DNA of 64,000 nucleotides from Lingula anatina (taxonomy: Eukaryota > Animalia > Brachiopoda). Within the stretch, counting starts at the first letter, position 1. The number at the start of each line of letters is the position of its first letter. This document shows positions 1 to 42,205 of the stretch, in pieces. The stretch lies in assembly GCA_051362555.1 (NCBI GenBank), contig CM120641.1, positions 32,804,401 through 32,868,400 of the forward strand. The letters are read 5' to 3'. A model generated the notes under the pieces. It did not search any database, was not told the origin of the DNA, and worked only from the letters and a program-made list of their open reading frames with translations. The translations under genes were made by a program, and so were the position numbers.

Positions 1-14430
<14,430 letters not shown>

Positions 14431-14954
14431 GAAAAAGGTACAAAAATGACCTGCTGTGCAGGATAGGCTCCCTCTCCATGGTAAGCTTTAGATGCCATTG
14501 GGAGGCAGTCAGATTTAGGAGGGGCAGATGGATGGATGTGACAACTCCATATTCTTTCTATAAAAGAGTTTATATTTCCAATATGCAGAACATTTCTTTG
14601 TAAAATATTGATTCTTTACATTAGAAGCATTTTTATAGTGTGCTAAGAAGAAACAATCCCAACCTTTCTATTTACCATAAAAAGAAGTCTTTCAGGCAGC
14701 TATGTGAATCCAAAAACATTGCAAAGGGGTGCTTTTTGTATGATAATAAATATAAAATATTGGTTTATTTTATTACAGTTTTTTCCACTTTTTTTCTTTA
14801 TTAATTTTTTTTTTAGATGTTTTTGAGACAATGATAATAATTTGGCCAGCTTACACATTTTGAGGCATGTAGTGTCTCAAAATCAAAATAATATTCCAGC
14901 ATAGTGTGTCCATTGAAAAATTGAGCCAAACACTACTATAGAGTTTGAGATGGA

Positions 14955-16200
14955 AAACAAGGCAGCAAAGCTGTCAAATGTACAGACAAAAAACAGAAAA
15001 TAAAGATGCAAAATAGGTCATTTTGTCAATTTTGATGCAATAATAAATAATGCTTATTATAGCACTGTCAGTCAACACTGAATTTTAATCATGCACAACA
15101 GGTAACATGGTCAATAACAGGAGTAGACCCAGAGATATTGCAAAATTTACCTGCATAATTATCACTGCTTCCTTATTATTAATCTAGCAGACTGGCTTAA
15201 TCTTTGGGAGTTTACAGGGAAATATCAACAACTGTGCTTTATGTAATCTCATTTAATAACCTATTAATTAGGCAAATGACTTTATAACTCTGAACTTAGC
15301 TTAGTGATACCCAAGGGAAATTTACAGACTGACCCTCTCAAAGGTCTTTCAGGCCCATAAGTCACATCTTAAGAAAAGCACAAAGTAATAATGCACAAAA
15401 TAGGATGCTGTCAATTCTGATGCAATACTATATTACGCTTAACTGCAAAGTCAACATCAAATTTAAATTATGCAAAACAGGTAATACCGATGAAAGTAAA
15501 AGCAGGCCCATGAGAGTTCAAGTTCATACTTAGAAAATGCCAGAATGAGAAAAATGAGAATTTCACAAAAAGTTGCGTTAATTCAATAAAAAATGATAAT
15601 CCAATAGAGCTGGTTTTCTTATTTGAGCTGTATGTCAATCCTAAGAATCATTCTTTTAAGCTAAAAAAAAAATAAGTAACATAGTTTGCTTTTTATCATA
15701 ACGTTTGTGATGACAGTGCACGAAGTTGGCTTTTTGTCAATTTTGATGCAATATTACATAATGATTAACTATAATTACCACCATTTATTTTTATTAATAA
15801 CGTAGTCATTTAGAAAATTTGATTACCACTGGGCTTCATGACCATGGGAGTTCCAAGTCCCACATTGAAAATGCCAATATATGAAAGATAACAACTTCAC
15901 AAACATGTACAACAGAAAAAGAAACCAATTAGATTGCTTTTCCAACACAGGCTGCATTTTAGACCTGTGTTTCTTTCCTGTAAGTTTTAAGAAGAGTAAG
16001 TAACATGGTTTTTCTTTAATGGTCACTATAAAAGCAGTGTCCAAAATAGAGGTTTCTTCATTTTCGTTGCAATATTACATAATGCATAATGACCATCAAT
16101 TTTAATAATGAAATAAAATTATCATGGATATTCAGACTAGCAAAGGTCTTCAAACCCATGGAAGTTCAAAGTCACACCTTGAAAATGTCGATATGTGAAA
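14955..16200 (+). mobile_element. 5' fragment of the large Helentron-associated non-autonomous repeat family
   Basis: Starts AAACAAG...GCTGTCAAATGTACAGAC, matching 41323 onward; further blocks match 36180-37250 and 42210-43250. Confidence 0.8.
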
Positions 16201-18275
16201 AATTTAAGGATGAGTGCAGATAACCATTGGCAAAGTGCCCATCGTCAATTTTTTAAATAATTTGCTATTATAAAGTTTATGCATATATTTGTTGTGTGAA
16301 AAAATATTATTTGGTTTGAGGCATCGTTTGAGCCATGAGGTATCGTATTTTTAATGAGTAATATGTGGGGGTGGAGGTAACCAGATTTACCTGTTGTATG
16401 CAGTCTAATATGAATCAGAGCAAGTTATTTCAGCATATATATTGCATAAATAATTTTTTCTAATGAAACTTGTCTTGTGGTGAAAAAAAGAGTTATATGT
16501 TAAATAATTGCGATGTGGCACAAGTAAATGGGAAAGTAATTGTTTTTTTTTTGTTTGTTTGTTTGTTTTTTTTTAATCCTAGAGAAGAGAGGGAGGGGTG
16601 GTGTATTACAATATTTTCTCACAGAAACCATCACTGATTTCACTCAACTGTATAAAAGTCTTGTAACTAGAAAAACTTGTATCAGCGTATTTATTAATTT
16701 TATATAACTTTTCTCACAGACCAGCATTTGTTGGTCTAAATAATTATATTGTTAACCAATACACATTTTGTACAAAGCCCTATAGAATAGTAAAAAATGC
16801 TAAAAGCAAAAGGCTGTTACAGTAACACAAAAAAATCATGTGTTAAAGCACTCTAAACACCTATTTGGAATGTTTCCATTAACCATACAATAAACAAGGT
16901 ATAAATTGTACCAAAATAATGATAAGGTAAAAGTAAAAACTAAATGAAAATATAGTACATATAATAACAGTAATGGCCAATAATCTGTATGACAATGAAA
17001 ATAAATCACCTAAAAAGTACTTCATATATGATAATGTATGTGATAAAGACCTTGTATAGAAAGCAATGCAAGAGTTATTTTATACAAAATATATAAATAT
17101 GAGAATAAAAAATGTATAATAAACAATAGATAATTAATCAGATGTGCTGTCTGAAACACTTTCTGCCTCGCTAATACTCTCACCACTTGATGTTGGTAAA
17201 TGCAAGAAGTTATAATGAGACTCTTTATAACTTCTTGGTAAATGTGAGGCATCCTATCTCCCTACCTCCCCCCCCCCCCCCCCCCCCACGCACACACACA
17301 CACACAAACACACACGCAAAAGTTTTTTTAAACCATGCCAGTTCTGAACTGTGAATAGGGGAACTATGGGTCGCTGCATGCCATCTTCTTTCAAGCAAAT
17401 CAAAGAAATGTTAAAATATTTAAGCAATTATAAATAGTAACTAAAACATTTTAATTTAAAAATCACACCAAGCATATTATCTTTTCGTTATCCTTTCTCC
17501 TTGCAAAATCAAAGCAACCAAAAAAACTGGACAACTCCACATAAATATTAATAGCAAAAATGTATTATCACTTTATCTTTATTGTCATCATCTGTGAAAC
17601 AAGATATGAAATGAAAGTTTCTTCAAAGTGCATTGTGGATCAGTGTATATTGTGGATAAGTGTTTCAGTGTACGCGGACAAGGTCGTTCAATGACGGCCT
17701 GGGGCAGGTTAGTAAACTTCAAGTTGATATCATGTCAACAAGATGCAAGGACACTGTCAATCACAATTAGGGGAGAGGCATGCGTGGTTTCCCTTCAAAA
17801 ACTATTATAGCCTAACATTGATTCTTCCCTCCGAAGTAATTGTGTGATTTTTTTCTTTTTAAACAAAAAAGTTAAGGTATGAAAACGCTGAATGTATTTC
17901 AAACGTAGGTGTATATACAATACAAATAATGAAATCTGTGTCTCACTCTCACACGACACCCCCGCGTCCAAACTGACAGGATGGTGGCGACAGCAACGCC
18001 CCCAGTCGACAATCTAAGATTGGAAGTCTATGAGCGATAGACTAATTAATGCCAAATTTCCGCATGACAACGATTTATAGACTCCCGGGAATTACTTTCC
18101 CTCAACGCTCTTTGTCGCGCTGGCGGTCAATGCAGCATTTATTTCAAAACAAGTTGACCGCAAATTAAGCACGATTTTGCACCTTCAAGTTCCGTGTCAC
18201 GTTTTCATATCATGCATCTTTTATTTCTACAAGTATTCTCTGCCCAAAATGCGTAAAAAAAGAGAGTTATCTTAC

Positions 18276-18390
18276 CAGGTTGTTTAGAAAACTTCTTTTT
18301 CCCCTGACTACACGTCTTCTCTCCCGTTCACCTCCAGGTTAAAATGACCACTCAGCTTCGCTTCTAACACCACTACACGTCACTTCCGGG
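18276..18390 (-). promoter_or_regulatory. Candidate housekeeping-type promoter with non-coding first exon
   Basis: CCGGAAGTGACGTG (ETS-CRE composite) on the minus strand at 18376-18389, local CpG enrichment 17950-18400, donor CTG|GTAAGA at 18276/18275. Confidence 0.5.
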
Positions 18391-19289
18391 CACAATCAGT
18401 CTTCTCCGATTCCCTTTATTAACACACGTAGGAACTGCAAGTCTTCAAAATGGTTGAATAAGTTTAAATCAGTGAAAAGGGATCCAAAAAATATTTTTTC
18501 ATTTTAATACTTATCATTCATCAGCTTTTGCATTTTCCATCTATTTTATCTCAGCTGCTTATGATAAGTGTTTAAATCATCAATTAATTCTCGTAAAATA
18601 TAAATAGTTTAAGTCATGAATAATCCTTAGATATACACCCAATGCATATTTTCAAAGATGCCAGTGTGTTATTGTGATGTTATACAAGTTGTTATTATTT
18701 TAACAAAAGTTAAAAGAAAATGATAAAAAAAAAAAAAAAACCAGACTAAGATATGGGTCCCGTGACAATCTTCCTTCTACAATTTAAGTGTGAATAACTA
18801 GTAACTATGAAAACAGGAACTCACAAACAATATTACAATCACCATTTACCGAATCTGTATTAATTATTACTTTCAACCTTAAAACATTTAAGTCAACCAT
18901 GAAACAATCTATAAGAGAATTGAATTGTGTTAATGGTATGGCAACTCCTGAGAACATCTTCAGTTATAATATAATGGCAGTGTTCCAAAACCACGATACA
19001 TATTAAATACAGGCTTGCTTAAATCTTAAACGGAAAGGAAGCATTATCAAGTGTTGCACCTGCTCAGCAAAGCTGCAAATTTTATTTTGCAGCATCACAA
19101 TTTCACTAGCACAAATCAGTAATAACTGTTAGTATATTTGTAACATATTTAATATTCGTCATTTGCCTCTAATCTTCGCTTAACATTATTAAAATATTAC
19201 CACACATATTTATGATAAATGTATGCATATTTGTAATAACTAAATTTTGTCATTTGCTACGGGAATGGGGGGGGGGGGGTCTTAAAAAT

Positions 19290-19793
19290 AAAAATTTTGG
19301 GCCGCAATTCCCACAGCAAATATGAAGGAGTACCAGTAGATAAGGCCGGTGCCATGAAACTGAGGGTCCGTGTGACAGAAAGTCCGTCCTCCATATAGTT
19401 AGGGTTAGTTTGACCTAAGTAGGTCAAAATCTAGGGCGAGGCTCACTTGTACAAATGAATGGGAAGCGGACTCTCTGTCATGGGGGACTTTCTGGTACAT
19501 GTCACCGGTGATGGCACAGAAATGGGAAAATTCTTGGTTTTGTCTAGTTTTGCTTGCATTATACATTTATATAAAATCTGATTCTCAAAATAAATGCAAT
19601 CGGCAAGTATTATGCTACAGGGATGGGAGTGAGGTGTTCTTAAGAATAAAAAAATTGGGCCTTAATTCCCTCAGCAAATATAAAATAGTGCCAGTAGATA
19701 AGGACAATAATGGCACAAGGATGGAAAAAATCTTGGTTTTGTCTAGTTTTGCTTGCTATATGCATTTATATAAAAAATTGGGCCTCAATTCCC

Positions 19794-19839
<46 letters not shown>

Positions 19840-19940
19840 GTGCCAGTAGATAAGGATAACAATGGCACAGGAATGGGAAAAAACTAGTTTTTTTCTCGTT
19901 TTACTTGTGTTATAGTCAAGAACATATACATTTATACACA
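19290..19940. repeat. ~120-bp diverged tandem repeat (3 copies); first copy interrupted by a small MITE (19346-19508), third has a poly(A) expansion
   Basis: Unit TTGGGCC..AATTCCC.CAGCAAA..AGT.CCAGTAGATAAGG..ATGGCACA..; the insert has CCGGTG.CATG / CATG.CACCGG ends and an inner TGACAGA.AGTCCG inverted pair. Confidence 0.75.
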
Positions 19941-20059
19941 ATGTACCCCTTCGTTAACATTAAGAGGTGTTGGGTTCTTAAATCTACAGTGGGATTTATT
20001 TAAGTAAGATAGTTACTTCTCTAATTTGACTCAGGAAAGTCTAGGTAACGGCTCGAGTT

Positions 20060-20220
20060 ATTCCTGGGGCTCCGTAACTTAAAAGCATGCGTATTGCGAA
20101 CGGCGATATCACATAGAGGCTACAGTGTATTACATGGGGCGAGCATGGGCAAGTAATGGAATCGAGGCGCTTGCGCTCGGTCGCAATGCGCGCTGCTTTC
20201 GAGTTACGGGGCCCGGGAGA
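20060..20220. mobile_element. Small GC-rich MITE
   Basis: CCTGGGGCTCCGTAACTTAAAAGC is an imperfect inverted repeat of GCTTTCGAGTTACGGGGCCCGGG. Confidence 0.6.
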
Positions 20221-23200
20221 GCAAAGTAACGCAGCACCACAGCTTTGTATCCAAAAACCAAAATTCAATTCATTACCTGGACATCGGCTAGTTTTATGGA
20301 AGAAATTGGAGTGACAGAAATAGTGACGAAATTGTAAAAGTTTAAGTGAGGCGAAAGAGGATAATTTCTACTAATGATTAAACGAGCATACATGCGAGTC
20401 CATTTAAATTTATTTGCAAGTCTCGCTTTTTTTTAGCGATCTGTACACGACCACTTTTTTTTTACAGAAAAAAAAAAAAAAAGAAAAATAAAATTATAGA
20501 ATATTTTTTATTCAACTATTATGTACAATTTTGAATATTTACAGTTGATTTAAAAAGGACTAATAATCAGTAATGAACTACGTAAACGCAATGAATTAAT
20601 ACATAGCAGTATTATCAAAAGTTCTAAGATTTTCCATCGTCTTCATCTAGCGTCGGAACGCACACAGTCCGATAATGCAGGTCTTATGGTCGGAAACTGG
20701 TACCAGATGCTCTCGGGCCGTGGGGAAAAACCCGTCTAAACCCTTCGTGGGGAATGCCGGGAAAGTGCCCACGCCCGGATAATTCGGTCCTTATAACATG
20801 ACTAAATCGGTTTCTATTGGCACGGCGCTGCGTACAGTTCAAGAATCGTCCCGTTTTAGACAGCATTGTGTGACGGAATAACCTTTGTGTTGACTAACTA
20901 TTCTCTATATATACTATACACGAGGTGAAGCATAAAAACTTATTATTAAAGTAATTCTTATAGAAAAAGGCACTGAAGCCAATAAATAACTATCAAGAGA
21001 CATAACAATTAAACAGAATCATTTTGACTTTATCTTGGAGAATTCATAAATAAAGTTAATCATTTTACAACTGCAAGCATCTTTCAAAACTTGATTATAG
21101 TTCTCTTTATGATAAAATGCAAACAGATTCAAGTAATATGATTATAACTCGGGAATATCAATGATTTCAACTAAACTTTGATATATAATTCGACTTAAAA
21201 TACCAGGTTTCTAAAATGTAACTTTGCACTGAAATCGCAACTACCTGCATGATACAAGTACAGAATAAAGCAAGCTTGCTTCAAAATATTTCGGATCTCA
21301 CATTACACTGTATGACCGCCCATGTAAATTTCAATCTGAATTTTTTTGATCCGGAGAAAAGGTGCATATGTGATGAAGTGGATGTATTTGTCAAGTATAA
21401 CACTTGAGAAAATCTGAATATTAGTAATGTGATCTCTATCTTGAGAGATGACAGCATCTCTCAAGAAGAGCAGACTGTACAAAAAATATAATGAAATATT
21501 TTCTCACACGTAAAATATTTCATTACAGATTTTGCACAATCTATCAATGTAAAATCTCTTCATGTAAAAGCGTTTACATGAAGTCAGATTTTACAAAGAT
21601 GTGAGGGTTTGTTAGTAAGGTTAGTGTGCAGGTTAAGACTTTTTCAAATGCCATACTGACAAACAGCTCCACATCATCAAAAGCACAAATATGAAAAATG
21701 ACCATCTCAGATTGAAACAAAACACAGACGACCACAAGTGGTGGGAATGTTTTTGTGAGCAAAAAACTATCTGCATTCAGAATGTGGATAAAGCAACTCT
21801 ATATTCAAATTTATTAATATAATAATTATAGCAACTGTAGAGGTAGACTTTTCCTACAGAAGCACACATCTTATTCAATTGATCTTGTATATGGAATGAA
21901 GAATTATCTTGAACCTCAGTTTTCTCTTCTGTTATTGAAATAAAATGGTTCACTGCATAAGGCATAAAATACAAATGAAATTTGATGCAATTTCACCTTG
22001 ACATGTTTGTGACCCATGAACCCCAAATATTCTCAGCATCCAAAAGACTGATACATTATTAGACTGTATTCCCACTACATTCAGTACTGTATATTGCCTC
22101 ATTACCATTCCACATTCTTTATATTTGTTTGCAGAACAAGCCGTGTCCTTCAACACCAAAACTCGTGGGATGTCCGAGCATCCATGAAAGTGTCCACAGG
22201 GCTCCTTGCTAACGCTGTACAGTGTTCAACATCTTGGACATTTGGTCTTGGGTCGACGTTATCTGACATCATGCAGGCGTAATTATTGGAAAACTCCCAA
22301 TTCGTAGCCTACAAATGAAATCCAACTTTTACTCAAAAGTATGAAAAGCTATATCGAAAGCTTGCAGTAACTGCAACAAAGAAAGTATATCACTGGTATT
22401 TACACACCGTTAACATTAATGAAAAGCTTGGTTCTTAAAATGATCAGAGCGTTATTTCCAAATGTACAGTGAAATATGCTTCCTTTATTGAAATATATAT
22501 ATATTAACTTTTTAGAGTAAGTAGACAGCAGTCTTCAAAAAATAAATTATTTCAAACATTTGACAAAAAAGTAAGAAAAGATGTTGCTATATTGAATATT
22601 GTAATGTTAGCCTACATGTTAAATTGTTGACTGTCTGTGCTACTTCTAATTCTACTGTTTGTTTACATAGGATATAGTTTTTGATCACTGTCAATAATAA
22701 GAAATGCCATAATACACCAATAATAATACTTAAAAAATTCAGAACCACTTTTCTTAAGTTGTTGATCCCCAATAACTTACAAAGTTATCTGTATAAAGAT
22801 CCCTCAATCCTGAAGAAGTGTTTCATCTGGAGGTTTGGTAGTTGCAATCTTCATTTTTAGAATCCACCACTTTTGGTAGCCTGCAAATTTAAATTATTAC
22901 TTCAAAATGTAATAAAAGTCAACCATTTGTATATGAAATGTGTTTTTAAAGTTTCAGCAGTTTGATGGGAAATAAATATAAAAAGCACTTTTGTCACATA
23001 CTTGGAAAAAACATTCAAGCGAAATATTTTGACATGCCACTGGCGACCTTCAGACTTAATGTCACAATGGGGTATTGCACAAATTAGTTTTAACGAAGGA
23101 AAAGGAACACTAACAGCATTTAAACGACTCTACTCAAAGACAAGTTTAAGTAAAGCCTGAACAATCTAGATCCAGCGGGAGGAGTGTACTAGTATTCCAT

Positions 23201-23529
23201 CAAGTGTTTAATTTGTGAAGGATTTATATGGGAGAGACAAAGAGAAAGTTGAACGTTAGAGTTAAAGAACACGGGAAGGAATAAGAAAGGGTACCGAAGA
23301 GGGAAAAATACACTACAGCCCAAGGTAGCCTTCTGCTACAACGAACCATCACAAAAAACATTGATTGGGAGAGTGCCAAGATTCTACAAAAAGAAAGTGA
23401 CTGGAGAACAAGAGGCGTAAAGGGAGGCATATAAACCAGGAAAATGCCTAACAATCTGAACAATATAGAGAGATGGAAATAAATACTCACTTCTACGGTG
23501 GCCTTTTATTACCACAACCACAGCACTGG

Positions 23530-24207
23530 AGGTGGGGGTGGTAGCTGCTAGTATACAATTTCTGGACCAGTGACAACGTCCCGGAGTCACATTGGTGGTG
23601 GGTGTTGGGGGCGGTAGCTCCAAGTATTCTGGACCAGTAACCACGCCCTAGAGTCACATTGGTGGTGGTGGGTGGTGGGGGCGGTAGCTCCAAGTAATCT
23701 GGACCACTGACCACGCCTCGGAGTCACATTGTTGGTGGTGGGTGGTGGGGGCGGTAGCTCCAAGTAATCTGGACCAGTGACCACGCCCCGGAGTCACATT
23801 GGTGGCGGTGGGTGGTGGGGGCGGTAGCTCCAAGTAATCTGGACCAGTGACCACACCTCGGAGTCACATTGGTGGTGGTGGGTGGTGGGGGCGGTAGCTC
23901 CAAGTAATCTGGACCAGTGACCACGCCCCGGAGTCACATTGGTGGCGGTGGGTGGTGGGGGCGGTAGCTCCAAGTAATCTGGACCAGTGACCACACCTCG
24001 GAGTCACATTGGTGGTGGTGGGTGGTGGGGGCGGTAGCTCCAAGTAATCTGGACCACTGACCACGCCTCGGAGTCACATTGGTGGTGGTGGGTGGTGGGG
24101 GCGGTAGCTCCAAGTAATCTGGACCAGTGACCACGCCCCGGAGTCACATTGGTGGTGGTGGGTGGTGGGGGCGGTAGCTCCAAGTGATCTGGACCATTGA
24201 CAACGTC
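23530..24207. repeat. 70-bp G-rich minisatellite, ~9.5 copies
   Basis: GAGTCACATT recurs at 23584, 23651, 23721, 23791, 23861, 23931, 24001, 24071, 24141. Confidence 0.97.
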
Positions 24208-25664
24208 CTGCAGAATATTGAGACTGTTGAGGATCTGAAAGTTGACGAATGGCATGTCAAAATATTTTGTATGAATGATAAGGTTTTTCCACATCTGTGA
24301 CAAATTAAAAGAGCTTTTTACCTGTGAAAAATGAGCACTGAATTTGCTAGAGTAAATTGTAAATAGAAAACAAATGCCTGCACCGAGTGACAGGTCCCAA
24401 ACATTCTTAAAACAATTGTCTAAGACCTTGCACAAAATGCTCAGTTTGTTGGAGTTGCACTGATAAAAGATTTGTATTATCTATACAATGAATGACAATC
24501 TAGTTCATTTACCCTTATCCTGTCCCATAACTTACCTTGAATGCTCTGTAATCACAACTACTGAAGGGCTCTTGAAACACTATGATATAGCTGACATGGC
24601 TTTCTCCATTTTAGCCTTGTTAACCTTGTTAAAATGGACCGTCATCAGGACAGGCGCTCGCCAATGCTATCTGCCTCAACTACAAAATAAAAAATTATAA
24701 GTCAAAAGTTTCCCTCTTTACTTCTCCCACCCAAATCCAATCTACTAACCATAAATATCTTAATCCTAGGAGTGGGTCATGGGTAAAAGACATTGCCTTC
24801 TGAATGTAAGCTGTCAAATTAATGTGGCTAACGGTTTTTAGTTTTTCAAGGTAAGAAAAATCACTTAAGTGTTTTGTTTTCCCCCAAAAACATGAGTGAT
24901 ATGTACCTTTTAAGGCTTGATAGGTTTCCATCTCTGTGAAACGCCATATGCTTCTGATGCTCCCCCATGCAGCCCCCTAACATACAGACCATGGCAGGAC
25001 TCAACCATGCACCAAGGATTGAATGCGACCCTCTTCTTGCACCTCTTTCAAAAAAGCGGGACTTTATCAGGAATTGCCCTAATTGAGTTCTGTAAATAGA
25101 AAGGAAAATTTGATTAGTTTTCAAAAATTGTATATCAAACGCAGTCTGCAGCCAGAAAAATTGTTGGAATCGGTAGATTTCCAGAATGTGTCAATTTGGT
25201 GACATGGCTGTTAGATTTTTTCTATAAGTATGAAGAAGAGCTTTTGATTTATTTTAAATGTAACTGTTACATCATGATTCGAGAAAAATGTCAAGGTCTT
25301 GTTAATACAAATATTAATGCAATCCAGTCTAGTCCTATTGAACTTTGTATTCGAACCAGTGAATCAAGATTCAGACATCTATATCTAGTTTTTAGGAAAG
25401 AAGGTGGACTGAATGGCCAGTAGGGTGAAAAGTTTATGGCACAGACTGCTGCTGAAAAATTAATTTTAGTGTATTGTTCTCGCCAGTAACACGGGTTACC
25501 TTGCAGGTTTTTCCGCCTCAGTGAAACACCATATGCTTCAGACGCTTCTCCAATGCAGCCTCTTCAACAGACCGTGGCAGGACTCACTGGCACCAAGGAT
25601 TGAGGGATGTATCGGAAGTGTGCACGTGGCCCTCTTCTCCTTGCAGTTGCCATGAAACGTTGGA

Positions 25665-26040
25665 CAGGACTCGCTGGACGCTTCCTAGTGCAGCCACCTC
25701 GTAGACAGACCATGGCAGGACTCGCTGGACGCTTCCCCAGTGCAGCCACCTCGTAGACGGACCATGGCAGGACTCGCTGGACGCTTCCCCAGTGCAGCCA
25801 CCTCGTAGACGGACCATGGCAGGACTCGCTGGACGCTTCCCCAGTGCAGCCACCTCGCAGACGGACCATGGCAGGACTCGCTGGACGCTTCCCCAGTGCA
25901 GCCACCTCGCAGATAGACCATGGCACGACTCGCTGGACGCTTCCTTAATGCAGCCACCTCGTAGACAGGCCATGACAGGACTCGCTGGACGCTTCCCCAG
26001 TGCAGCCACATCAGAGACAGACCATGGCAGGACTCGCTGG
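25665..26040. repeat. 52-bp GC-rich minisatellite, ~7 copies
   Basis: Unit CATGGCAGGACTCGCTGGACGCTTCCCCAGTGCAGCCACCTCGTAGACGGAC (25711, 25763, ...). Confidence 0.97.
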
Positions 26041-26207
26041 CACCAAGGAATGGTCAAAGTAGCTTAAGTGTAGATGTGGGACGTCTCCTTGCAGTTGTGT
26101 TCTGTCAACAGAAAGAAAAATGAATTAATGAATTTTCATACTATGTCAGCACTCTGCAGTCAGGCTTACCTTTAAGTGGTTTCCATCTCATTGAAACACC
26201 ATATGAC

Positions 26208-26478
26208 AAGACTCGCTGGACGCTTCCCCAGTGCAGCCACCTCGTAGACAGACCATGGCAGGACTCGCTGGACGCTACCCCTGTGCCGCCACCTCGTAGA
26301 CAGGCCATGGCAGGACTCGCTGGACGCTTCCCCTGTGCAGCCACCTCGTAGACAGGCCATGGCAGGACTCGCTGGACGCTTCCCCAGTGCAGCCACCTCG
26401 TAGACAGACCATGGCAGGACTCGCTGGACGCTTCCCCAGTGAAGCCACCTCGTAGAGAGACCATGGCAGGACTCGCTG
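26208..26478. repeat. Second array of the same 52-bp unit, ~5 copies
   Basis: Same unit as 25665-26040, separated from it by a 68-nt GT-AG intron candidate (26169-26102, minus strand). Confidence 0.95.
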
Positions 26479-26536
26479 GCTCCAAAGGATGGTCGAAGTA
26501 GCTTAAGTGTAGATGTGGGGTGTCTCCTTGCAGTTG

Positions 26537-27712
26537 TGTCCTGTAAACAGAAATAAAAACGAGATTAGATTTCTTTCATTTCTCAAACTTCCCTTCCAAA
26601 AAGAAAAAAAAATTACATACCTTAAGGAGTGTAGTCGAAGTCCCACAGGTGGCGCCCATCATCTTCTATGTCCTGTAAACAGAATTAAAAACGAGATTAG
26701 ATTTCTTTCATTTCTCAAACTCCCCTTCCAAAAAGAAAAAAAGATTACATACCTTAAGGAGTGTAGTCGAAGTCCCACAGGTGGCGCCCATCATCTTCTA
26801 TGTCCTGTAAACAGAAATAAAAACGAGATTAGATTTCTTTCACTTCTCAAACTCCCCTTCCAAAAAGAAAAAAAGATTACATACCTTAAGGAGTGAAGTC
26901 GAAGTCCCACAGGTGGCGCCATCATCTTCTATGTCCTGTAAACAGAAATAAAAACGAGATTAGATTTCTTTCATTTCTCAAACTCCCCTTCCAAAAAGAA
27001 AAAAGATTACATACCTTAAGGAGTGTAGTCGAAGTCCCACAGGTGGCGCCCATCATCTTCTATGTCCTGTAAACAAAAAATAAAAACGAGATTAGATTTC
27101 TTTCATTTCTCAAACCCCCCTTCCAAAAAGAAAAAAGATTACATACCTTAAGGAGTGTAGTCGAAGTCCCACAGGTGGCGCCCATCATCTTCTATGTCCT
27201 GTAAACAGAAATAAAAACGAGATTAGATTTCTTTCACTTCTCAAACTCCCCTTCCAAAAAGAAAAAAAGATTACATACCTTAAGGAGTGTAGTCGAAGTC
27301 CCACAGGTGGCGCCCATCATCTTCTATGTCCTGTAAACAGAAATAAAAACGAGATTAGATTTCTTTCACTTCTCAAACTCCCCTTCCAAAAAGAAAAAAA
27401 GATTACATACCTTAAGGAGTGTAGTCGAAGTCCCACAGGTGGCGCCCATCATCTTCTATGTCCTGTAAACAGAAATAAAAACGAGATTAGATTTCTTTCA
27501 CTTCTCAAACTTCCCTTCCAAAAAGAAAAAAAGATTACATACCTTAAGGAGTGTAGTCGAAGTCCCACAGGTGGCGCCCATCATCTTCTATGTCCTGTAA
27601 ACAGAAATAAAAACGAGATTAGATTTCTTTCATTTCTCAAACCCCCCTTCCAAAAAGAAAAAAAGATTACATACCTTAAGGAGTGTAGTCGAAATCCCAC
27701 AGGTGGCGCCCA
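26537..27712 (-). repeat. 132-bp tandem repeat, 9 copies; unit = 52-nt exon + 80-nt intron on the minus strand
   Basis: CTGTAAAC recurs at 26541, 26673, 26805, 26936, 27067, 27199, 27331, 27463, 27595; minus strand reads AAG|GTATGT...CTAAT...TTTTTATTTCTGTTTACAG|GAC. Confidence 0.95.
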
Positions 27713-28067
27713 CCAGTTTGCAGTCTGCTTCCTGGACCTGTAATAAAAAGAAACCTGGAAAGCATGGGAATATGCAATGACACTACGACTCCAGCCCACG
27801 ACAGCAAAAAGGTGAAGTATCCTGCGAAGATGACCGAGCGACGATTCCTCGTGGGGAGAAGCGAAGATTTTAGCTGGCCAGCTAAGAGAAACGCCGAATC
27901 CACCGTCTAGACGTCTGCGTGTGCAGGGAACAATTTGTCGAAGAGCGATGCGTTGACGTAGGATGAGTAGAAGATTCGGAGAAATGGGAGTCGACTCCCG
28001 TGTCCTTTGTGCTTGATACAGGGCGCAGCACATGGTATCCGTCCTGTTGCTCTAGATCTGTCCGCTG

Positions 28068-28153
28068 TTGAGTGAACGCACTTTTAAAATTTTGCGCTTT
28101 TATACCTTTGTTGACGTATAGTCACATGATGGCGTTCTTGTTGTCACCAATGG
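28068..28153 (-). promoter_or_regulatory. Pol II core promoter: TATA box, initiator, E-box, CCAAT
   Basis: Minus-strand TATAAAAG at 28104-28097; TCACT initiator with A at 28073 (31 nt downstream); GTCACATGA at 28121-28129; CCAAT near 28147; CpG-rich sequence downstream (27800-28070). Confidence 0.65.
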
Positions 28154-28663
28154 TCAACTTGTTCAAAGGGGATGGCCTTTGATAGTGATGCGCAAAGTTG
28201 GTAATAATATCTTATCAACATATACATTTTCTTTTATATTTTATATTTTGATTATTCTGCCTGTCAGTTTGTTTATAATAAGAGTAATAAGTTCTAAGCA
28301 ATGTCTGTGAAATGTGCAGGCAAATTTGATGAAAATTTCTGAGCAACATACCTTCTCCCTAAAATTTTTATAGGTACGATGTCCGTTAAGCTGGTAGCTG
28401 TGAACTTCTCGCAGGCTACTTTAGTGTGCGTGTATTTGAACACTGATCCAAAATGTGGATAATGTAATTTGGCGTAGGGTGACTGCATTTTTGAGGCAGC
28501 CTGAGGGAGTATGGTTGTTCTGATTGTAGTGAATTGTAGAGAGACAATTGGAAGTACACTGGACTTAGCATGTTCAGTCACCCAAGTACTCTGAAACACA
28601 TTTTGTAATCAGCTGACTTGTTATTCTGAAAAATGAAAAAACAAATTATATTGATTTACAAAA

Positions 28664-28983
28664 CTGGAAGATAGAAACAGTGGATCATATTACTTATGCC
28701 AGGCAGAAGAAACGACTGAATGTATATTTTTATATTCAAAACGTCTACTGATTTAGGTAATAATTAATAGCCTGGAAGATAGCAGCAGTGCATCATATTA
28801 CTAATGCAAGGCAGAAGAAACGAGTGAATGTATATGTCTATATTCAAAACGTCTACTGATTTAGGTAATAATTAATAGCCTGGAAGATAGCAGCAGTGGA
28901 TCATATTACTAATGCAAGGCAGAAGAAACGAGTGAATGTATATGTCTCTATTCAAAACGTCTACTGATTTAGGTAATAATTAA
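28664..28983. repeat. 108-bp tandem repeat, 3 copies
   Basis: CTGGAAGATAG at 28664, 28772, 28880. Confidence 0.95.
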
Positions 28984-31900
28984 CAACTGACGTCTCCCTT
29001 CATGGCGTCGGGTTATCAGTACTCCCACACCAGTAACATGAGTTATGAGTTGAGCAGAAACAGAAAAAGATTTTTTATAAAGATAATGCAAGTATATGTG
29101 TAGGCCCATTTATCTTTTTTTTATATTACTAAACGTAAGAATTGTTTGTCCAAGTGAAACTTTACTTACATCAGCCTAGCAACTAAATCTGACGTTTAAA
29201 CGTCTCCGAAAATAACTAGAATTTTTTGAATAACGCAATAATGCGGCCACCTTCGAGGTGTCGCCCGGTTTTTAAAAATTAAAAAAAGAAACTTTTCGGG
29301 GCGTCTTTTGTCGCGGGTCATTATTTTCAGTTGTTTGATGTTTTTTTGTAATATTTTAGCCATTGATAGAATCTATAATTCAGTTACATCCACGATTAGC
29401 TAGACGAAATGGTGTCAGGGAAAAGTCAAATTTTTTAAACGGCAAAAACTGCATTCTCTTAGAAAGCAATTAGCAAACATTCATTACTGTGAAAAATTCA
29501 ACCGAAGTTGAAGACAAAATGTGTCAAAAATAAACGTGCATGTCGTAATACCTATTTAAAGCAGTCTAATTTTTGTTAGTATTAAAAAACGTGTAAATAT
29601 TATCCACATAGGATATTTTTAAAGCCTTCGATATTTAAAATATTTAAACTTCCCATACTTTGAGGCATGCATGAGTCGGAAAATGTTTGCATAATTACAT
29701 AAAAAACTAGAATTATCTCTTTATGTGACCACAGTTTACTCATGTGCCTTACATCATTCCCTTAAACCCTTTCCCAGTATCGATTTCAGATATTTTTGAC
29801 ACATTTTGTCTTCATCTGAATCACGTGAACGTTATCAAGTGTCATAAGGCGTACATTACGAAAATATTTAGGTCTTGGAACGTGATTTGATGACTTTTTT
29901 AAATGCATATATATACAATTATAAATTTATAATTAAGTTATTTAATATCAAATTATAAGTTCTGACCGAGTTTTAAAATTTATTTTAGGAGGGGTAAAAA
30001 ACCCCAACCCCATCTAATATATATTGGATACATCCGTAGGCTTATGTCCTTAGAACTAGGCGTACAAAATGTGTCTTCTAGCTAAAGTTATTATTATGGT
30101 GTATGTGTAATTAAAAAAAACTACGTAAGAGTGACAATAGGTCATGTGTTTCGAATGCACCCCCACTCTCCGATCAGACATTGCTTTTGTATAATTCACA
30201 GTCCATCTTCGTTGTAGTTTGTGACTTTACGTCATTTCTTAGTGAAGCGGTGTTGTCCTCAATTTACCTTAAATGTCCAAATTACTAAGAAGAAACCACT
30301 TGCAAGAATTATAAGGCTTTTTATACTGCTAGGTCTATAGATGTGATACACACGATATTTTGCAACCCCACAAAATCTGTTTCTTAAAATTTTGGTTCCA
30401 CCACAAAGCTTAGCACTATCATTCTTTTTTGCTTTATTGATATATTTTCAGTACACAAATATCCATTGTCTGTTGCCCAATTTTGCACAAAATTAAGATA
30501 ATCCCCAAAACCTCATTAATTGTGTTTCCTCCATCCCAAAAAATATTAAAAATTTCTCCTCATAATTTAGTAGTGCACTGGCATCTACACAGTACATAAA
30601 TGTATCATTATAATAACGTCTTGTTCTTACTGATAACATAATTAGCTTAATTCCATAACAATTCTAAAATGTTAATAACAATGAAAATTCAAAGTAGATG
30701 GCAAGATTCTTATTGTGCTGATAAAGATAAAATATGTAAATTCAATACTGATTAGGTACTGTATACTGGCTCATTGAAAAAAGGGAACCGTTTCACAAAA
30801 AAATTAAGCTTAGACTGCTAAATCTGGATAGCCAACTATACAAAGTCAACTTTGCGATATTGTCTTACAACTACAATTTTTTAAGAATGATTGGTCCACA
30901 GTTGATGAGTAGAATATACATAAATGGGCTACTGACACCACTGCAAGTAAAAGACTTGCCAAGACAATCAAAATGTAAATCAAAGGAAAGTGAAAAGAAA
31001 GTAAAAAGACTGGAAAAAATGAGGCAAAATTGATAACTTGGTTAATGAGCGAACAATACTCTAGTTTTGATTAAATCAGAACTTTTCTTGCACCTTTTCT
31101 TGGGGAATAGGGGATTGGTGTAGTGAAAGCCCAACCTTAACCTTTGGATGTTATTCTCATTAAACATATGCATAAAAGACAAAATTTAGACCACAAATAG
31201 ATTCATGCAATCTACCAACCTTTTTTACAGTGAGTCATTGCAACTTATCAGTTATTTCTGGCCTAGGTTATCTGTAAGATTCTTAAAACTGTGAAGTGCA
31301 ACTTAGCCAGCTAAGTCTTTATAGGCTCAGATTTTAGACTACAAACCAGCTTCAAACATTTAGTAAAGCAAGTGCAAGGAATAGTTAGTTTGAAGGCTCT
31401 GCCTCCCCATAGGGTGAGAACAAACACAGTCACACTGTATGATACATTACAGAAAACATTGGTTAAAAATATACACTGGAATTTTACATTTTCACTAGTA
31501 TAGAATCAATTTGATTTCTAAAACTGACTTATTATAAAAATACTCCTGTCAATTTAAAACTTTTTCATAAAGCATATCTGAAATACACTGATAAAATGTT
31601 ATTAAAAATATCAAAATTTGATATTCACAGATAAAATAGGCTCAAGTCAAAATGATTAAGACAATTATTGAAGCATTATTCAAACCCCAATTTTGATTAT
31701 TTTCATACAATTAGTGATTCACAAGTTCTTTAACAGAGTTGTACCTAATCTGACTACATGATATCTATCAAAATCTCTCTAAAATCAAGTGACAAAAAAT
31801 GCCCACAGTTTCAAGCACCATAAAATATGGCTTAAGTAAGTAATATCCTCAATTGTTTCATAATAAACGTCATGTCACTTGAATGTACCATTCTCCAGAA

Positions 31901-32147
31901 AAAAAGATGAACTTGCAAGGTTTGATAAGTCTGCGTTTACAGGTAGATGTCATAGTTTAATATACATGAGGCAGCTTTATATCGTGGTCAACAATATTAC
32001 ATTATATCAGTTTCTCTAGCCTCCATGTCTTATTCGTCATAATATTTTGATTTTCAAATTCAGGGTCCCCTAGTAAAAGATCTTGCATTTCCTCTTGATC
32101 ACAGAAGAATCTGAGTTAAGAATACAGTTGAGAATACAGAGTTAAAA

Positions 32148-32253
32148 TTAGGCCTCTCCTCTCCACTCGGGGTCCTCTTGCAACTGAACCTGGCTGACAT
32201 CCATGGTTACATCTTGAAAAATAATATATTCCCAAAAAAGTTTAAATGGTGCA

Positions 32254-32291
<38 letters not shown>

Positions 32292-35200
32292 TAAAATCAA
32301 TAAATCTTGGACACATTACTTGTCGTACGTCTGAATAACATGACAGACAAGAAGAAAATAGTTGCTCTTGAAAATGGACTTTAAGTAATGAAAATGCAAG
32401 ATGACAGCTAGTAGATAGTACATGTGCATGCAATTTATTTGAAATTCTGACTTTTCAGTCCTAATGATTTAGATTATTTATAGCCAATAATCTGAGAAAA
32501 TAAAATATTCAACAGAAAAATTGATTGCAATAAATCCTGCTCGTACCTGACTGCTTAATATTCACTGCAGCAAACCTCTCTACGACATCGTCGAGCTGAT
32601 CAGTAGGGTCATCGTAATCACATCCTGTGTACGCTTTTTTCTCGAGGCAGTACTTAAGGAAACTACACCAAAGAGAAGTTGAAAATAAAGAAAGAATTGC
32701 CTACTTTCTTTTGTCTTTCTGTATGGACTTTCATTCACAATAAAAGAAAGAATTGCCTAGTAGACACTATTTTGTCTGTCAGTTTGGAGTTTAATTTACA
32801 TGTTTTTTAACTTTCCTTTTTTTTCTATTTTTTTTTTCATTTAACAGTCTGTCTGAACTAAAACATAATAGCTTTCTCTTTTTCATCTTTCTATCCTCTG
32901 TTTTTTTTTTTTTGTCAGTCTGTCTGAACAAACATTAAAAATTTAATTTATGAACTTTATTAAATCCTTAACATTTCTTTTTTTGTTGGTTTGTCTGTCT
33001 GTCTGAACAAGAGTTCTTAGAAACAATGAGATTAAATAAAGATTAAATAAAGGAAAAAAATTTTGAACCTAACATGGCTGATTTGTGTTTGGTTTGAAAA
33101 AGTCTTATAATTTGCTTACTGATCAAATAAATTAAAATAATTCACTTCACCTGTTCCAATGTTCATCTTGCGAAAGAAGAAACGGATTCCCTACAACAAT
33201 CAATAGGGCCTTTGCTCTTGTGATCGACACATTAAACCTCTGAAAAAAAAATTAATCCCACATGTAACTGTATGTGCGGGTGAACACTGAAGACAGTATA
33301 GTCTGAGACTAACTGTTCATATCTCTTCTGTGAATTCCGCATCACATGGCATAGTCTCTGCAGTGCCATAGTGGAAAGAAATGATGAAAATAGTATGGAC
33401 TATAGCTGTTTAAATAACCTTACATTTCAAAATATGTGTGTGCACATCCACATGTACAAAGTCTTATGAATTATGTGTTCACGCATGTACATATGCCATA
33501 GCACAATCATGGTAATGACACTATCTTTTCAATGGGCAAAAATTATCAAACTTTCAAATGTATACCTTTATAAACACACAAAGTATATAGTATTAGTGGT
33601 ACTCTTACTGCACAGATTAGAACTATAGAGTAGCTTACTTTTTTATTCTGTTGTGACCATCAAATAGGAATTGGGTAGGAGTATCAAAATTTTAAAAATT
33701 AATGGCCTAAAAAATACCGCATCTGTAAAATTCACGATTTCCCCCCCACTGAAAAAAAATCAAGTTATTACCATATGCTGAGGTGGCACTAGCAATTTTT
33801 TCTAAAGCCAAATTACTACTTTTTCATCACTTTTTTCTCCAAAATGGTTTAAATTTGACTAAAATAAGTCAAATCAACCCTATTTTGTTTAGCCAATTGA
33901 AGTCAGTTTTAGCATTTGGCTTAATTGGGCAGTGTTAACTCTACCCCAGTTTGTGTGTCCACATGCATAAGTGTACAAATGACTGACCTTTGGGTTCTTT
34001 AAAAAGCCCAGCTTGAACTCTGCGTCCAGAGCCAGGTAATCGGGGTTACTCCTCACGGTGGACACCATGATGACCCGTCTCTCCTGACCCTGAAATTCCT
34101 CCACACTGCCCACCTTTATGTCCCGAAAGTTTTTCTTGAACAGCAGTTGCCTCAGTTTTTGAACCTGTGGAGAGAATAAAAAGGGATGTCTGTGCATTTA
34201 CAGGCCCGTAACCAGCAATTTCAAAAGGGGGGTTCTTTTTCTGAAAAAGTGGACCTTTTTCCATAAAAACTTCATGTACCTAGATCAAATTTTACCCACA
34301 GTGGACCTTTTCCCAGCAAAAGTGGCAGTTCTGTAAAACCCCCGAACCCCCCCTGGCTATGCGCCTGATTTAATACTCATCCGTTACATTCAGCATTTAC
34401 TTTATCTTTATCTTATTTTACTAGTAGTTAGCCATAACTCTGAACAGGCTGCATATTGTTAGTACATTACATTATAACCAAGCTCAGGTGGATTAGTAAT
34501 TGAATTTGCCATGTGAGATGGGAGTGAGCAAATTCACCACAATTTTAATTTTAATTTTTTAAATTTTTCTTTATACTTTATCACATGTACACTTCTGTAG
34601 TTAAAGTAGGACTTTTCATAAGCCTAACAGTACCATATCTATAACATACTATTAACTCAGATGTATTGTGGCTGTACTTTAAGGTAAATGGAATGTTGGA
34701 CCTTTAAAGAATGTTGACTACTGGCTCTTTAGAGCTACGCCACATTCTTAGAATCTATTGCCCTAACTAAGCAAAAAGGCCCAGTTAATAATTGTAAACA
34801 AATTTGCAAAGTTTTACTAGGCAGCTTCAATTAATTGGCATTTGGCCTGAAGCCCGATTTGATATTGCAAACTGTTGTTAGTAACTTGAAAAGGGAGAGG
34901 GACTGGGGAGGGGTTGCCTGTATTCATCATGGAATAAGCTCTGTCATATTTCCCTCACTTGTTTTCTGTAGGGGGAAATAATTCCAATTTCATTCTGCAA
35001 GACTCGGATGCCTCTGGCCTCCAGTAGCTTCTCCACATATCCCAACACAATAGTTGCTTCTTCTGGATTGAAGAATGATGGACTCCTTTCCTCCCTCATG
35101 TCCTCCCCAACCACTCCATGGAATACAAAGGGACACCCCATTTTTGGTAAACCTTCCCAGTTGCAGAGGGACTCCCTGGCAAGTCGGTCAGCACAGGCTT

Positions 35201-35413
35201 CTAGCTCGTTGTCGTAGAACTGTTCATTTGGAAGCTTGAGGATAGCAGGATGTGATCTGTAGTTTTTGAGGAGTTTTGTAAGGAGGAATGGGTTGTAATG
35301 GCCTTGACGTTGGTACAGTACATCTTGATCGTCGTCATCTGAGCCAGGACTCGAACCACCCCTCTTCTTGTACACATCACAGTAGGTCATGTATCTTTCT
35401 AAGAGTGAGAGTC
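32148..35413 (-). CDS. MOV10: MOV10 (UPF1-like SF1 RNA helicase), last five coding exons only
   Basis: Exons 35413-34959, 34164-33988, 33239-33151, 32662-32547, 32212-32148 splice in frame without stops: GLSLLERYM..TKLLKNYRSHPAIL..SPSFFNPEEA..GIISPYRKQ|VQK..KVGSVEEFQGQER..STVRS..LGFLKNPK|RFNVSITRAKALLIVVGNP..YTGC..EDPEWRGEA*. The C-terminal EPEWR-type motif fits MOV10 better than MOV10L1 or UPF1. Confidence 0.92.
34201..34367 (-). mobile_element. ~165-bp MITE (CAGGCCCGTAGCCAG TIR family) in a MOV10 intron
   Basis: Same family, reverse orientation; ATTTA duplicated on both sides. Confidence 0.9.
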
Positions 35414-36159
35414 CTGTAAGACATTAAAATGATGAGACATTTCATATACATGTATAAATATATAAATGAAGTTATTCTTTATCAAAGAAACTAAATAACT
35501 ATGAGGTTCAAAAGGTTTTAATCTCACCATTATATGTACAAAAGAGATGAAAGAGACATTTTGTCAATGCTTAAGTACAAAATCTCTACTACCACATGTA
35601 AAAGTATTTCAGTGTTTGCAATTTTACCAGAGCTTATAGAACTACCAAAAAAAAACTGATCCTTGTCAAAACCTAGTCCTAGTCAAAAGAAAGACTTTCT
35701 TTTGTCAAATTTAAAATTATTGAAGGAATAATTCTTGGCACATCCATAGCAGTAAAAATGTTTCATTAATTGCATTACCTTTTATTTTACTTAAATCTTA
35801 GAAGCAGAAATCACTGGTCAATAAAAAGCTTTTAGAATAAGTCCTACATGTATATGATTTTACCAGACTCTCAAACACCTTTGTAAATATTATAGTTAAT
35901 CATAGTACTTTTGTCCACAATTTTCAACTTCACTTTTCTTTTAGTCATAGTCTTATTTCATTTTTATTTAAGCCCGAGGTAGTAATGTAACTTCCCCTTT
36001 TAATGCATTTCATAACACATACACTCACACACACTGGCAGATTAAAACTTTACTATTACTCATATTATCATTTTTATCATAATGGCTGTTGGGGGCATAT
36101 TATTATAATTAAATATATTAAAAACTATTATAATTATAATTATATATATTAAAAACTTA

Positions 36160-41875: not shown

Positions 41876-42103
41876 AACTAGAAAACCACCGAGAGTGCAG
41901 ACCTCTGCCAAGGCAGCAATTGTTGATTATTATTGATTGATTATTGAGCCAGACCACCACTAAAAACTAATCATTGTCCTCTTTGGCCCAATTCTGACAG
42001 TTCCTGAAAATTTCAACAAAATCGGTCCATAACTTTTTGAGTTATGTTGATGACAGACAAACAAGGGTGAAAATATAACCTCCTTGGCAGAGCCTGAGGT
42101 AAA
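41876..42103 (+). mobile_element. Small DINE-1/HINE-like element (ACCTCCGCCAAGG family), nested
   Basis: AACTAGAAAA..GCAGACCTCTGCCAAGG ... GACAGACAAAC..GGTGAAAATATAACCTCCTTGGCAGAG; related copies at 55681 and 62747. Confidence 0.8.
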
Positions 42104-42144
42104 TATAATTTCAATGAAGCTGCAATTCAAACTCTTAATCTTTG

Positions 42145-42145
<1 letters not shown>

Positions 42146-42205
<60 letters not shown>
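42146..42205. repeat. (TA)n microsatellite
   Basis: ~30 TA units. Confidence 0.95.

Follow-up and report, generated by a model that had tools for sequence, protein, structure and literature searches.

A young, high-copy family with a partly spliced, repeat-built transcription unit in Lingula anatina

In this study, we analyzed a minus-strand transcription unit in a 64,000-nt stretch of the Lingula anatina genome (contig CM120641.1, positions 32,804,401 to 32,868,400; hereafter the window). The unit has a candidate architecture of 16 exons and 15 GT..AG introns, and its features are listed in Table 1.

Architecture and transcription of the unit

The sequence bears out the approximately 16 minus-strand exon candidates of an earlier note on this DNA. 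GC content is 0.44–0.59 in 14 of the 16 candidate exons (0.37 in exons F and G) and 0.26–0.36 in all 15 introns. Four RNA runs (X13, X16, X19, and X20) yielded 233, 2, 44, and 33 reads per 9.5–12.4 million, an approximately 100-fold range between samples. These 312 reads were compared in the promoter, exon 1, and microexon region; their likeness was 99% or higher in 52, 95–99% in 172, and 90–95% in 88. Transcription runs on the minus strand and starts near the TATA/Inr promoter that the earlier note had described and that matches in sequence, with the Inr-like A at 28073 located 31 nt past the TATA start at 28104. Sense depth in X13 is 11.5, 4.1, and 2 over bins 27999–28112, and depth in X19 and X20 is zero in bins 28075–28302. 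At the shared 3′ modules, the strand bias in X13 is 58.4 versus 1.4 (20640..20830) and 46.4 versus 0, as measured without a control gene of known strand.

The earlier note held that its model would fall without spliced reads across the predicted junctions; microexon joints were spliced in three of the four runs. The joint 27594>27543 was spliced in 6, 0, 8, and 9 reads of X13, X16, X19, and X20, respectively (counted in RNA alone, without a DNA control), and microexon joints were unspliced in 45, 0, 2, and 10 reads. Intron retention is frequent. No RNA joint was found at an acceptor-like site at 27737, and the intron ending there was rejected, so that exon 1 extends from 28073 to 27675. Exon F has an X13 sense depth of 5.9–10.7, compared with 0 in three bins of intron F–G, and exon G has a depth of 10.5–15.2 at 22030–22335. 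The acceptor of this last exon is more likely 22308 than 22370 because the depth is 1.55 in bin 22336–22437 and 14.9 in bin 22234–22335; the likeness of X10 DNA relatives ends nearby at 22321. The E–F and F–G joints were absent among the 15 joints listed of 42 in the reads.

Table 1 Features of the transcription unit and its surroundings in the window
Feature	Position	Strand	Basis
Whole multi-copy element, approximate extent (ends unmapped)	20000..30000	-	depth, haplotypes, CpG
108-bp tandem repeat (x3) upstream of promoter	28664..28983	.	repeat search
Divergent RNA upstream of promoter, variant reads	28380..28660	+	X13 only, depth up to 14
TATA box (from 28104) and Inr-like start (~28073)	28073..28104	-	sequence; X13 sense depth
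Exon 1 (399 nt), first-ATG ORF at 28033	27675..28073	-	sequence and RNA; like Lingula LOC106172600 models
Array of nine 79–80-nt introns and eight 51–52-nt microexons, 132-bp unit	26541..27674	-	repeats and spliced joint
Exon A, predicted (371 nt), intra-exon 52-bp repeats	26170..26540	-	splice motifs, GC step
Exon B, predicted (602 nt), 52-bp repeats, paralogue of A	25500..26101	-	sequence
Exon C, predicted (183 nt), diverged A/B paralogue	24907..25089	-	sequence
Exon D, predicted (144 nt)	24536..24679	-	sequence
Inverted repeat, 5′ arm, over exon E acceptor	24227..24320	-	BLAST and RNA duplex
Exon E, predicted (804 nt), intra-exon 70-bp repeats	23491..24294	-	sequence; reads compared over last 65 nt only
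Inverted repeat, 3′ arm, inside intron E–F	22979..23061	-	BLAST and RNA duplex
Exon F (100 nt)	22781..22880	-	X13 sense depth
Exon G, acceptor most likely 22308, 3′ end undefined	21800..22308	-	X13 depth and likeness limit of X10 relatives
Three tandem near-perfect hairpins, 6-nt direct repeat flanks	21433..21598	.	fold z -9.7, 0/200 shuffles
GC-rich module, common to many more relatives, transcribed	20640..20830	-	read depth

The unit contains three tandem arrays (132 bp x8.9, 52 bp x15.2, and 70 bp x9.3). Splice sites, which the earlier note took to bound all three repeat classes, do lie within the 132-bp unit, whereas the units of 52 and 70 bp are both located inside exons. The exon resemblance that it had also noticed was significant for the tails common to exons A, B, and C (three of three pairs, p = 0.001, 1000 shuffles); the likeness between the microexon and the inner part of exon B (p = 0.009) is modest, as this was one of nine microexon comparisons. 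The 52-nt modules and the 70-bp unit are unrelated. Exon D was compared with another module once, through its tail and that of exon B, and the likeness was not significant (p = 0.08). Structure beyond that of shuffled sequences was not found in the repeat units (z = 0.57, 1.32, and -0.55), and the 80-nt and 68-nt introns were rejected as mirtrons (z = -0.90 and 0.84).

The inverted-repeat arms around exon E align over 87 nt at 74% in BLAST, and their RNA duplex is predicted at -75.5 kcal/mol, compared with -25.7 ± 4.2 for shuffles (best of 500, -39.9). X13 sense depth drops from 17.7 to 1.8 across the 3′ arm. Some relatives lack all or part of the hairpin block, as indicated by the joints 21421>21618, 21427>21517, and 21428>21480, and the GC-rich module reaches a summed X6 DNA depth of 29817.

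Copy number and extent of the family

The stretch represents a single copy in a high-copy family that is very young and is accompanied by older subfamilies. In the X6 DNA data, five contigs of 222–577 bp tile 20778–23450 with 0, 0, 2, 0, and 5 substitutions at a depth of 2047–2248, and the three diverged relatives listed have depths of 59, 77, and 104. The resulting 22- to 38-fold ratio is a rough guide, since it lacks a single-copy control and depth does not equal copy number. X6 depth above 2000 continues down to 20500. The X10 DNA data contain other subfamilies at depths of 28–502, and their summed depth is 559–1424 in exons F and G versus 130–239 in the middle of intron F–G.

Multi-copy sequence spans 20500–23555 (DNA depth) and 27543–28660 (many read haplotypes). 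The feature reaches at least 20500 and at least 28660, beyond the bounds of 21500..28153 given in the earlier note. CpG observed/expected is 1.25–1.36 at 20001–21000 and 29001–30000, compared with 0.20–0.33 in the flanking host genes, and this step alone suggests the approximate outer limits of an element of approximately 10 kb.

The repeat content of the Lingula genome has been given as 22.2% and 31.7%, with recent repeat expansion (PMC4595640, PMC13121700). No description of the family was found in the main text of these two genome papers, and their supplements or repeat libraries may list it. A literature search returned nothing for four LOC identifiers and two accessions, nor for a multicopy lncRNA.

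Coding potential and homology

Splicing to the first microexon would give the exon 1 ORF 121 codons, and without splicing it has 150. It begins at the first ATG, which is 40 nt downstream of the start and has an A at -3. Two RefSeq models, P0004 and P0005, share both this ATG and the exon 1–microexon junction with the window copy; in-frame gaps of one and three codons distinguish the two models. P0005 is identical to the window ORF at 95 of 96 amino acids over the first part, and the frame differs after codon 96. Synonymous differences amount to 11 of 24 against an expected 25–29% (p = 0.02–0.06), and the other frames have 7 of 24 each. In expressed copies, the ATG is lost (3/6, 2/2, and 1/1 reads), a Trp is changed to stop (5/5 reads in X19), and deletions of 1 nt and 7 nt occur (8/15 and 4/22 reads in X13). 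The codon periodicity of the ORF frame is -0.038, compared with -0.012 to 0.043 in all 18 held-out host exons. Exons D, F, and G score as non-coding-like, the head of exon E lies at the 99th percentile of the non-coding null, and frame 1 of exon F joined to exon G from 22308 gives approximately 85 codons with one internal stop. A single-sequence fold of P0004 was uninformative (mean pLDDT 43).

All protein matches are automatic "uncharacterized" models of Lingula anatina, located on four scaffolds of different length; the exon 1 ORF had no match outside Lingula among nine candidates. Pfam detected no domain in 92 peptides of 19850–30600, where the frames of exons D and F are too short, apart from two antisense hits (DUF6717 and FERM_M on the repeat frame 27096–27740) that exceeded the cut-off and were rejected because no single stretch passes. 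The same peptides contained no transposase or reverse-transcriptase remnant and no RepHel ORF; a control exon gave AAA_12 at 1.6e-22. The PHROGs search was blank. Rfam returned no match at E ≤ 1, and a second search gave nine matches (E 0.32–6.7) far below gathering scores. Exon A matched none of 363 candidates in a search of longer proteins. Exon E, compared with 1.84 billion proteins, gave four matches, each summed from 4–11 weak stretches: one was to a Mycoplasma protein of 4741 aa and three were to long repeat proteins (PKD/LVIVD, fibronectin III). All four were rejected. Exact DNA patterns were not found in metagenome, viral, or prokaryote genome contigs. A 16-residue match of P0004 to viral contigs was judged to be chance, and its atlas matches (0.94, bacterial hypothetical proteins; DUF6431 on 22–55% of lower-row members) are a mere lead on which Pfam is silent at E ≤ 10. 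The earlier note recognized no known family, and Pfam, Rfam, and protein searches, the last run in depth outside exons D, F, and G, also name none; no alignment to a known protein gene, which it held would mark a decayed pseudogene, was seen, the matches being to uncharacterized Lingula models.

Search for mobile-element ends and possible origin of the family

The canonical Helitron 3′ end (CTRR with a 16–20-nt palindrome approximately 11 nt upstream, then T) had two matches in the whole window (9195 and 62740) and none near the element, which lowers the probability of a Helitron without excluding it, as the ends are unmapped. For Helentron ends (11–15-bp subterminal inverted repeats with a 3′ palindrome outside), a comparison limited to 19850–20520 versus 28660–30600 gave two pairs, neither with an outer palindrome; controls gave 10, 10, 2, and 2 pairs. 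The rolling-circle label of the earlier note thus did not gain from either search, while the internal tandem-repeat array expected of Helentron/HINE elements is present. Among 111 candidate terminal inverted repeat pairs between 18400–20520 and 28200–32300, none of the best 40 combined a complex arm with a target-site duplication over 4 nt. Terminal direct repeats of the LTR, LARD, or TRIM type were not detected by self-BLAST of 14500–32300 against the window, and a comparison of the flanks gave one shared 14-mer. One hammerhead-like core at 24648 in exon D was rejected, since stem I is unpaired by eye and Rfam is silent. Within the analyzed region, no terminus, target-site duplication, empty site, or autonomous partner was found.

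We propose, with a probability of roughly 0.55, that this young multi-copy family, with its minus-strand, partly spliced, repeat-built RNA, is a non-autonomous transposon of approximately 10 kb that moves as DNA, and that the RNA is probably non-coding. Copy number and likeness are the sole grounds for mobility, which is likely; the near-identical copies could also have arisen elsewhere, by segmental duplication or within a tandem array. Among the readings offered by the earlier note (modular lncRNA, short-ORF mRNA, and cargo of a large mobile element), mobile cargo gains most because the family to which the stretch belongs is young, high in copy number, and exceeds the transcript in size; the short-ORF mRNA receives weak, mixed support. 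Copying would take place at the DNA level, as introns and upstream sequence are multi-copy and there is no LTR to rebuild the promoter, and the mobilizing enzyme would be encoded elsewhere. By elimination only, the best guess for this partner is a rolling-circle (Helitron/Helentron-type) element, at about even odds within the transposon reading. The exon–intron and intra-exon units may multiply by slippage or unequal crossing-over, free of coding constraint; all three unit lengths are 3n+1, and therefore no frame is kept. In a fully spliced RNA, the reading frame would meet a stop in the first microexon with 14 junctions still to follow; this would make the RNA a target of nonsense-mediated decay, which would leave intron-retaining RNA in excess, and the inverted repeat over the exon E acceptor would mask that site.

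The foremost alternative, although unlikely, is a lineage-specific short-ORF gene family, in which exon 1 and the first microexon encode a 121–136-aa protein and the rest is a spliced 3′ UTR under decay control. The start context, the ATG and junction shared by P0004 and P0005, their in-frame gaps, and the synonymous excess speak for such a gene. However, searching predicted proteins favors in-frame gaps, the window copy is out of frame with P0005 beyond codon 96, and the losses of ATG, stop change, and deletions in expressed copies, together with a frame that is not coding-like and matches confined to Lingula among the nine candidates, argue against it. Next in probability, and again unlikely, is a host lncRNA or small-RNA precursor family that spread by segmental duplication and gene conversion and was kept for an RNA function, its modules binding proteins or seeding silencing. 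Near-zero divergence in many copies and the amplification of different subfamilies in X6 and X10 fit selfish bursts better, the hairpin block is absent from some relatives, and the repeat units are neither structured nor related to an Rfam family; the wide expression range, the broader sharing of exons F and G than of their intron among X10 relatives, the strong hairpins and long duplex that could feed Dicer, and the lack of transposon ends in the searches above are what recommend it. A new mobile-element class appears doubtful: a self-spreading multi-exon lncRNA gene without TIR, LTR, or Helitron ends, active in Lingula, whose exon–intron modules would be amplified because the element profits from its RNA, which could act as a decoy or scaffold for factors of splicing, decay, or silencing, or could guide the mobilization of the element itself.

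Penelope-like elements retain introns, and intron-retaining polyA RNA covers most of the Lingula element, with some 3′ modules far more abundant than the body. A non-autonomous retroelement (Penelope-like or LARD-like) moving via unspliced RNA is nevertheless improbable, given that no direct or inverted terminal repeat or reverse-transcriptase remnant was found, that the hammerhead-like core was rejected, and that the multi-copy sequence reaches upstream of the start. Least probable of all is a decayed protein-coding gene, either of the host or for a transposase, with exons D–G as relics. The F–G frame and the exon E head hint at one, but exons D, F, and G do not resemble coding sequence, the exon E matches are summed stretches, and Pfam and PHROGs are blank, the D and F frames being too short for Pfam.

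Helentron non-autonomous elements (HINE, DINE-1, and oyster Cg_HINE) are described as dispersed, non-coding invertebrate elements with internal tandem arrays and palindromes (PMC4067079, PMC7492417). The Lingula element shares these arrays and palindromes, but it lacks a subterminal inverted repeat pair with an outer palindrome, or a microsatellite, near its presumed ends, and it carries three unrelated or distantly related arrays in a spliced Pol II unit, one of them composed of exon–intron units. Bat Helitrons such as HelibatN3 are reported to have spread captured promoters and splice donors as non-autonomous DNA elements from which transcripts are made (PMC4778049). The Lingula element would likewise spread a promoter and splice sites, and is transcribed; unlike in HelibatN3, no hairpin and CTRR end was found in the region, the entire multi-exon transcript is internal, and no host source gene was found. 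Internal tandem arrays are also described in tandem-repeat MITEs, e.g., DTC84 of Donax (PMC3879986). An inner 1.3-kb segment around exon E resembles DTC84 in that inverted arms enclose the 70-bp array; it is not an abundant independent MITE, because DNA depth at the 3′ arm is not much above its surroundings, and terminal inverted repeats with a target-site duplication were sought for the whole element and not found. Firre, Xist, and Rsx are spliced, repeat-module Pol II lncRNAs without a conserved ORF and are single-locus host genes. The Lingula RNA is similarly spliced and built from repeated modules, whereas its family is dispersed in many near-identical copies.

Such families breed false lineage-specific genes, as five RefSeq protein models at four loci come from this one. 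With its young copies, older subfamilies, and population-specific bursts, the family forms a natural series for directly counting the births of exons and introns through tandem duplication. It would represent a new transposon type if its ends prove non-canonical. Provided that it is mobile, this large, active element has kept its TATA promoter together with 15 introns and has no recognizable protein, which raises the question of the purpose of its RNA.

Architecture and transcription of the unit

Sixteen candidate exons totalling 3527 nt can be placed on the minus strand with 15 GT..AG introns between them, matching the roughly 16 exon candidates proposed in the earlier note, and the three tandem arrays described there measure 132 bp x 8.9, 52 bp x 15.2 and 70 bp x 9.3. 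GC content is 0.44-0.59 in 14 of the 16 exons versus 0.26-0.36 in all 15 introns, and the RNA length of every repeat unit is 3n+1 (52, 52 and 70). The likeness among exons is clear for A, B and C, which are paralogous with shared tails (3/3 pairs, p = 0.001), and modest between the microexon and inner B (p = 0.009, one among nine microexon comparisons). The 70-bp unit is unrelated to the 52-nt modules.

RNA from four read runs was mapped on 27543-28660, and X13, one of them, also on a second region, 20500-23555. The first region received 233, 2, 44 and 33 reads in X13, X16, X19 and X20, respectively (per 9.5-12.4 million). X13 behaves as a stranded library; its first mates are nearly all plus-strand over 27543-28074, apparently reporting minus-strand RNA by the mate-orientation convention. 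Read depth fades over 28040-28075, in line with the predicted TATA/Inr start. The spliced transcript anticipated earlier is seen as a microexon-to-microexon joint, exactly 52 nt back, counted in the RNA runs only at 6, 0, 8 and 9 reads; the RefSeq protein models P0004 and P0005 have the identical junction. Retained-intron joints number 45, 0, 2 and 10 in the same runs, and X13 depth is ~144 on the collapsed intron versus 11-25 on exon 1 (~9x), the ratio that retention of most of the nine introns would give. Downstream, X13 depth is 6-11 on exon F and 10-15 on exon G and drops to zero over three bins in the middle of intron F-G, a pattern consistent with splicing; the 15 joints listed, of 42, include no RNA joint. 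Depth across intron E-F is 17-34 as far as ~23060, and X13 sense reads run on to 20690.

The inverted repeat around exon E pairs at -75.5 kcal/mol versus -25.7 +/- 4.2 for shuffles. Folding gave the repeat units as unstructured, and Rfam returned nothing above chance, consistent with the earlier failure to recognise a known family. The hairpin block is flanked by 6-nt direct repeats and is absent or shortened in some relatives, so the hairpins are not essential ends.

Features of the unit and its surroundings (gene names are presumed from ORF translations)
Position	Strand	Feature
1-14430	+	Presumed fatty-acid synthase gene
14900-16250, 36200-44900		Separate dispersed repeat family (internal units 160, 330, 400 bp) common to the intergenic region and helicase gene introns
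18270-18400	-	CpG-rich promoter-like stretch, donor near 18276, presumed ETS-type motif; read as an unannotated gene start directed at the synthase 3' end
19330-19915		Segment duplicated in tandem, with 39 consecutive A at 19799-19837
20064-20216		Short element whose inverted ends are GC-rich, presumably a Harbinger-like MITE, adjacent to or within the large element's lower end
20720-20775		kB-like motif cluster in the GC-rich module of highest DNA depth; 2 of the window's 6 relaxed matches
21433-21598		Three hairpins in tandem, fold z -9.7
24320-24227, 23061-22979	-	Inverted repeat; exon E acceptor under the first arm
27954-29190		4 of the window's 15 TGACGT (CRE half-site) matches (27954-28118, 28988, 29190); two promoter-adjacent ones read TACGTCA
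28352-28627	-	Possible upstream exon (acceptor near 28627, donor 28351); low X13 sense depth, overlapping plus-strand RNA
29506-29817		27-bp inverted repeat (96%) around 258 bp, and a third, incomplete copy near 30070; either a MITE or a subterminal structure is possible
~32150-45500	-	Presumed MOV10-like helicase gene; AAA_12 confirmed by Pfam scan, the sole neighbour-gene identity so confirmed
near 49000		Presumed PICK1-like PDZ exon
from 58000		Presumed LDL-receptor-repeat gene; at 58380-63460, at least 12 class A repeat exons, some recent duplicates (94-95% identity)

A young multi-copy family

The unit is multi-copy, young, transcribed and partly spliced. Only 52 of the 312 RNA reads on 27543-28660 are 99+% alike, and many haplotypes are present. 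In the DNA run X6, 20778-23450 is tiled by five contigs that carry 0-5 substitutions and reach depth 2047-2248; depth is 59-104 for the three listed contigs that are diverged, and summed depth exceeds 2000 down to 20500. We read this as roughly some tens of near-identical copies, an estimate taken from raw depth. Other subfamilies, 85-96% alike, are present in a further run, X10, at depth 28-502, and related gene models come from four loci, whose scaffolds measure 36 kb, 346 kb, 687 kb and 1.67 Mb. Exon 1 differs between P0004 and P0005, 'isoforms' of one RefSeq locus, in both substitutions and gaps, which suggests two tandem unit copies there. The unit sits between the synthase and helicase genes, and undepleted CpG (o/e 1.25-1.36 at 20001-21000 and 29001-30000 versus 0.20-0.33 in host genes) suggests an insert of ~10 kb. 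Recent repeat expansion in the Lingula genome is described in the 2026 genome paper (PMC13121700).

With end criteria from PMC4067079, PMC7492417 and PMC4778049, a search limited by the unmapped true element ends found no Helitron 3' end, Helentron subTIR with palindrome, TIR with TSD, or LTR. Placed by behaviour and without the end signatures of either, the element would work like a HINE or a promoter-carrying Helitron.

Coding potential and competing explanations

The longest ATG-started frame in the joined exons is 136 codons (model with exon G from 22370). A Pfam scan of 92 of the 94 stop-to-stop peptides (two identical repeats dropped) and one control gave no credible domain in the 92, in agreement with the earlier impression of no known family, and PHROGs was blank for 12/12 peptides. 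Every convincing protein match is a Lingula anatina RefSeq model, one with 95/96 residues identical, which makes this species the most probable source of the window, itself animal DNA. The sole matches of exon A are three Lingula models of mixed frames; those of exon E were rejected as noise from repeat proteins.

The exon-1 ORF is the sole serious coding candidate. It contains 24 of the 40 listed differences (28 more are unlisted), of which 11 are synonymous versus 7 in each other frame; 25-29% is expected (p = 0.02-0.06, treating neighbouring changes as independent). This excess favours a short-ORF gene family, but expressed copies include cases of a lost start codon, a stop and two deletions that shift the frame, the codon periodicity score is non-coding, and the protein search found no relative outside Lingula; we consider such a family unlikely, though the likeliest of the alternatives. 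A host lncRNA or small-RNA family ranks next and is likewise doubtful. An intron-retaining retroelement seems very unlikely, and a decayed gene the least probable.

We favour, with a probability of roughly 0.55 for the reading as a whole, an element that would be copied at the DNA level in trans, since introns and upstream sequence are multi-copy and no terminal redundancy was found. Modules would be gained by slippage or unequal exchange, free of frame constraint; the spliced RNA would decay, because its reading frame would end upstream of 14 junctions; and the inverted repeat would mask exon E.

Non-autonomous elements bearing tandem arrays and Helitrons spreading promoters are already known. 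In the literature covered, mostly at the level of search listings, no precedent emerged for an element of ~10 kb that contains an entire 16-exon unit arisen through duplication of exon-intron modules. That this family represents a new element class is possible, at rather long odds.
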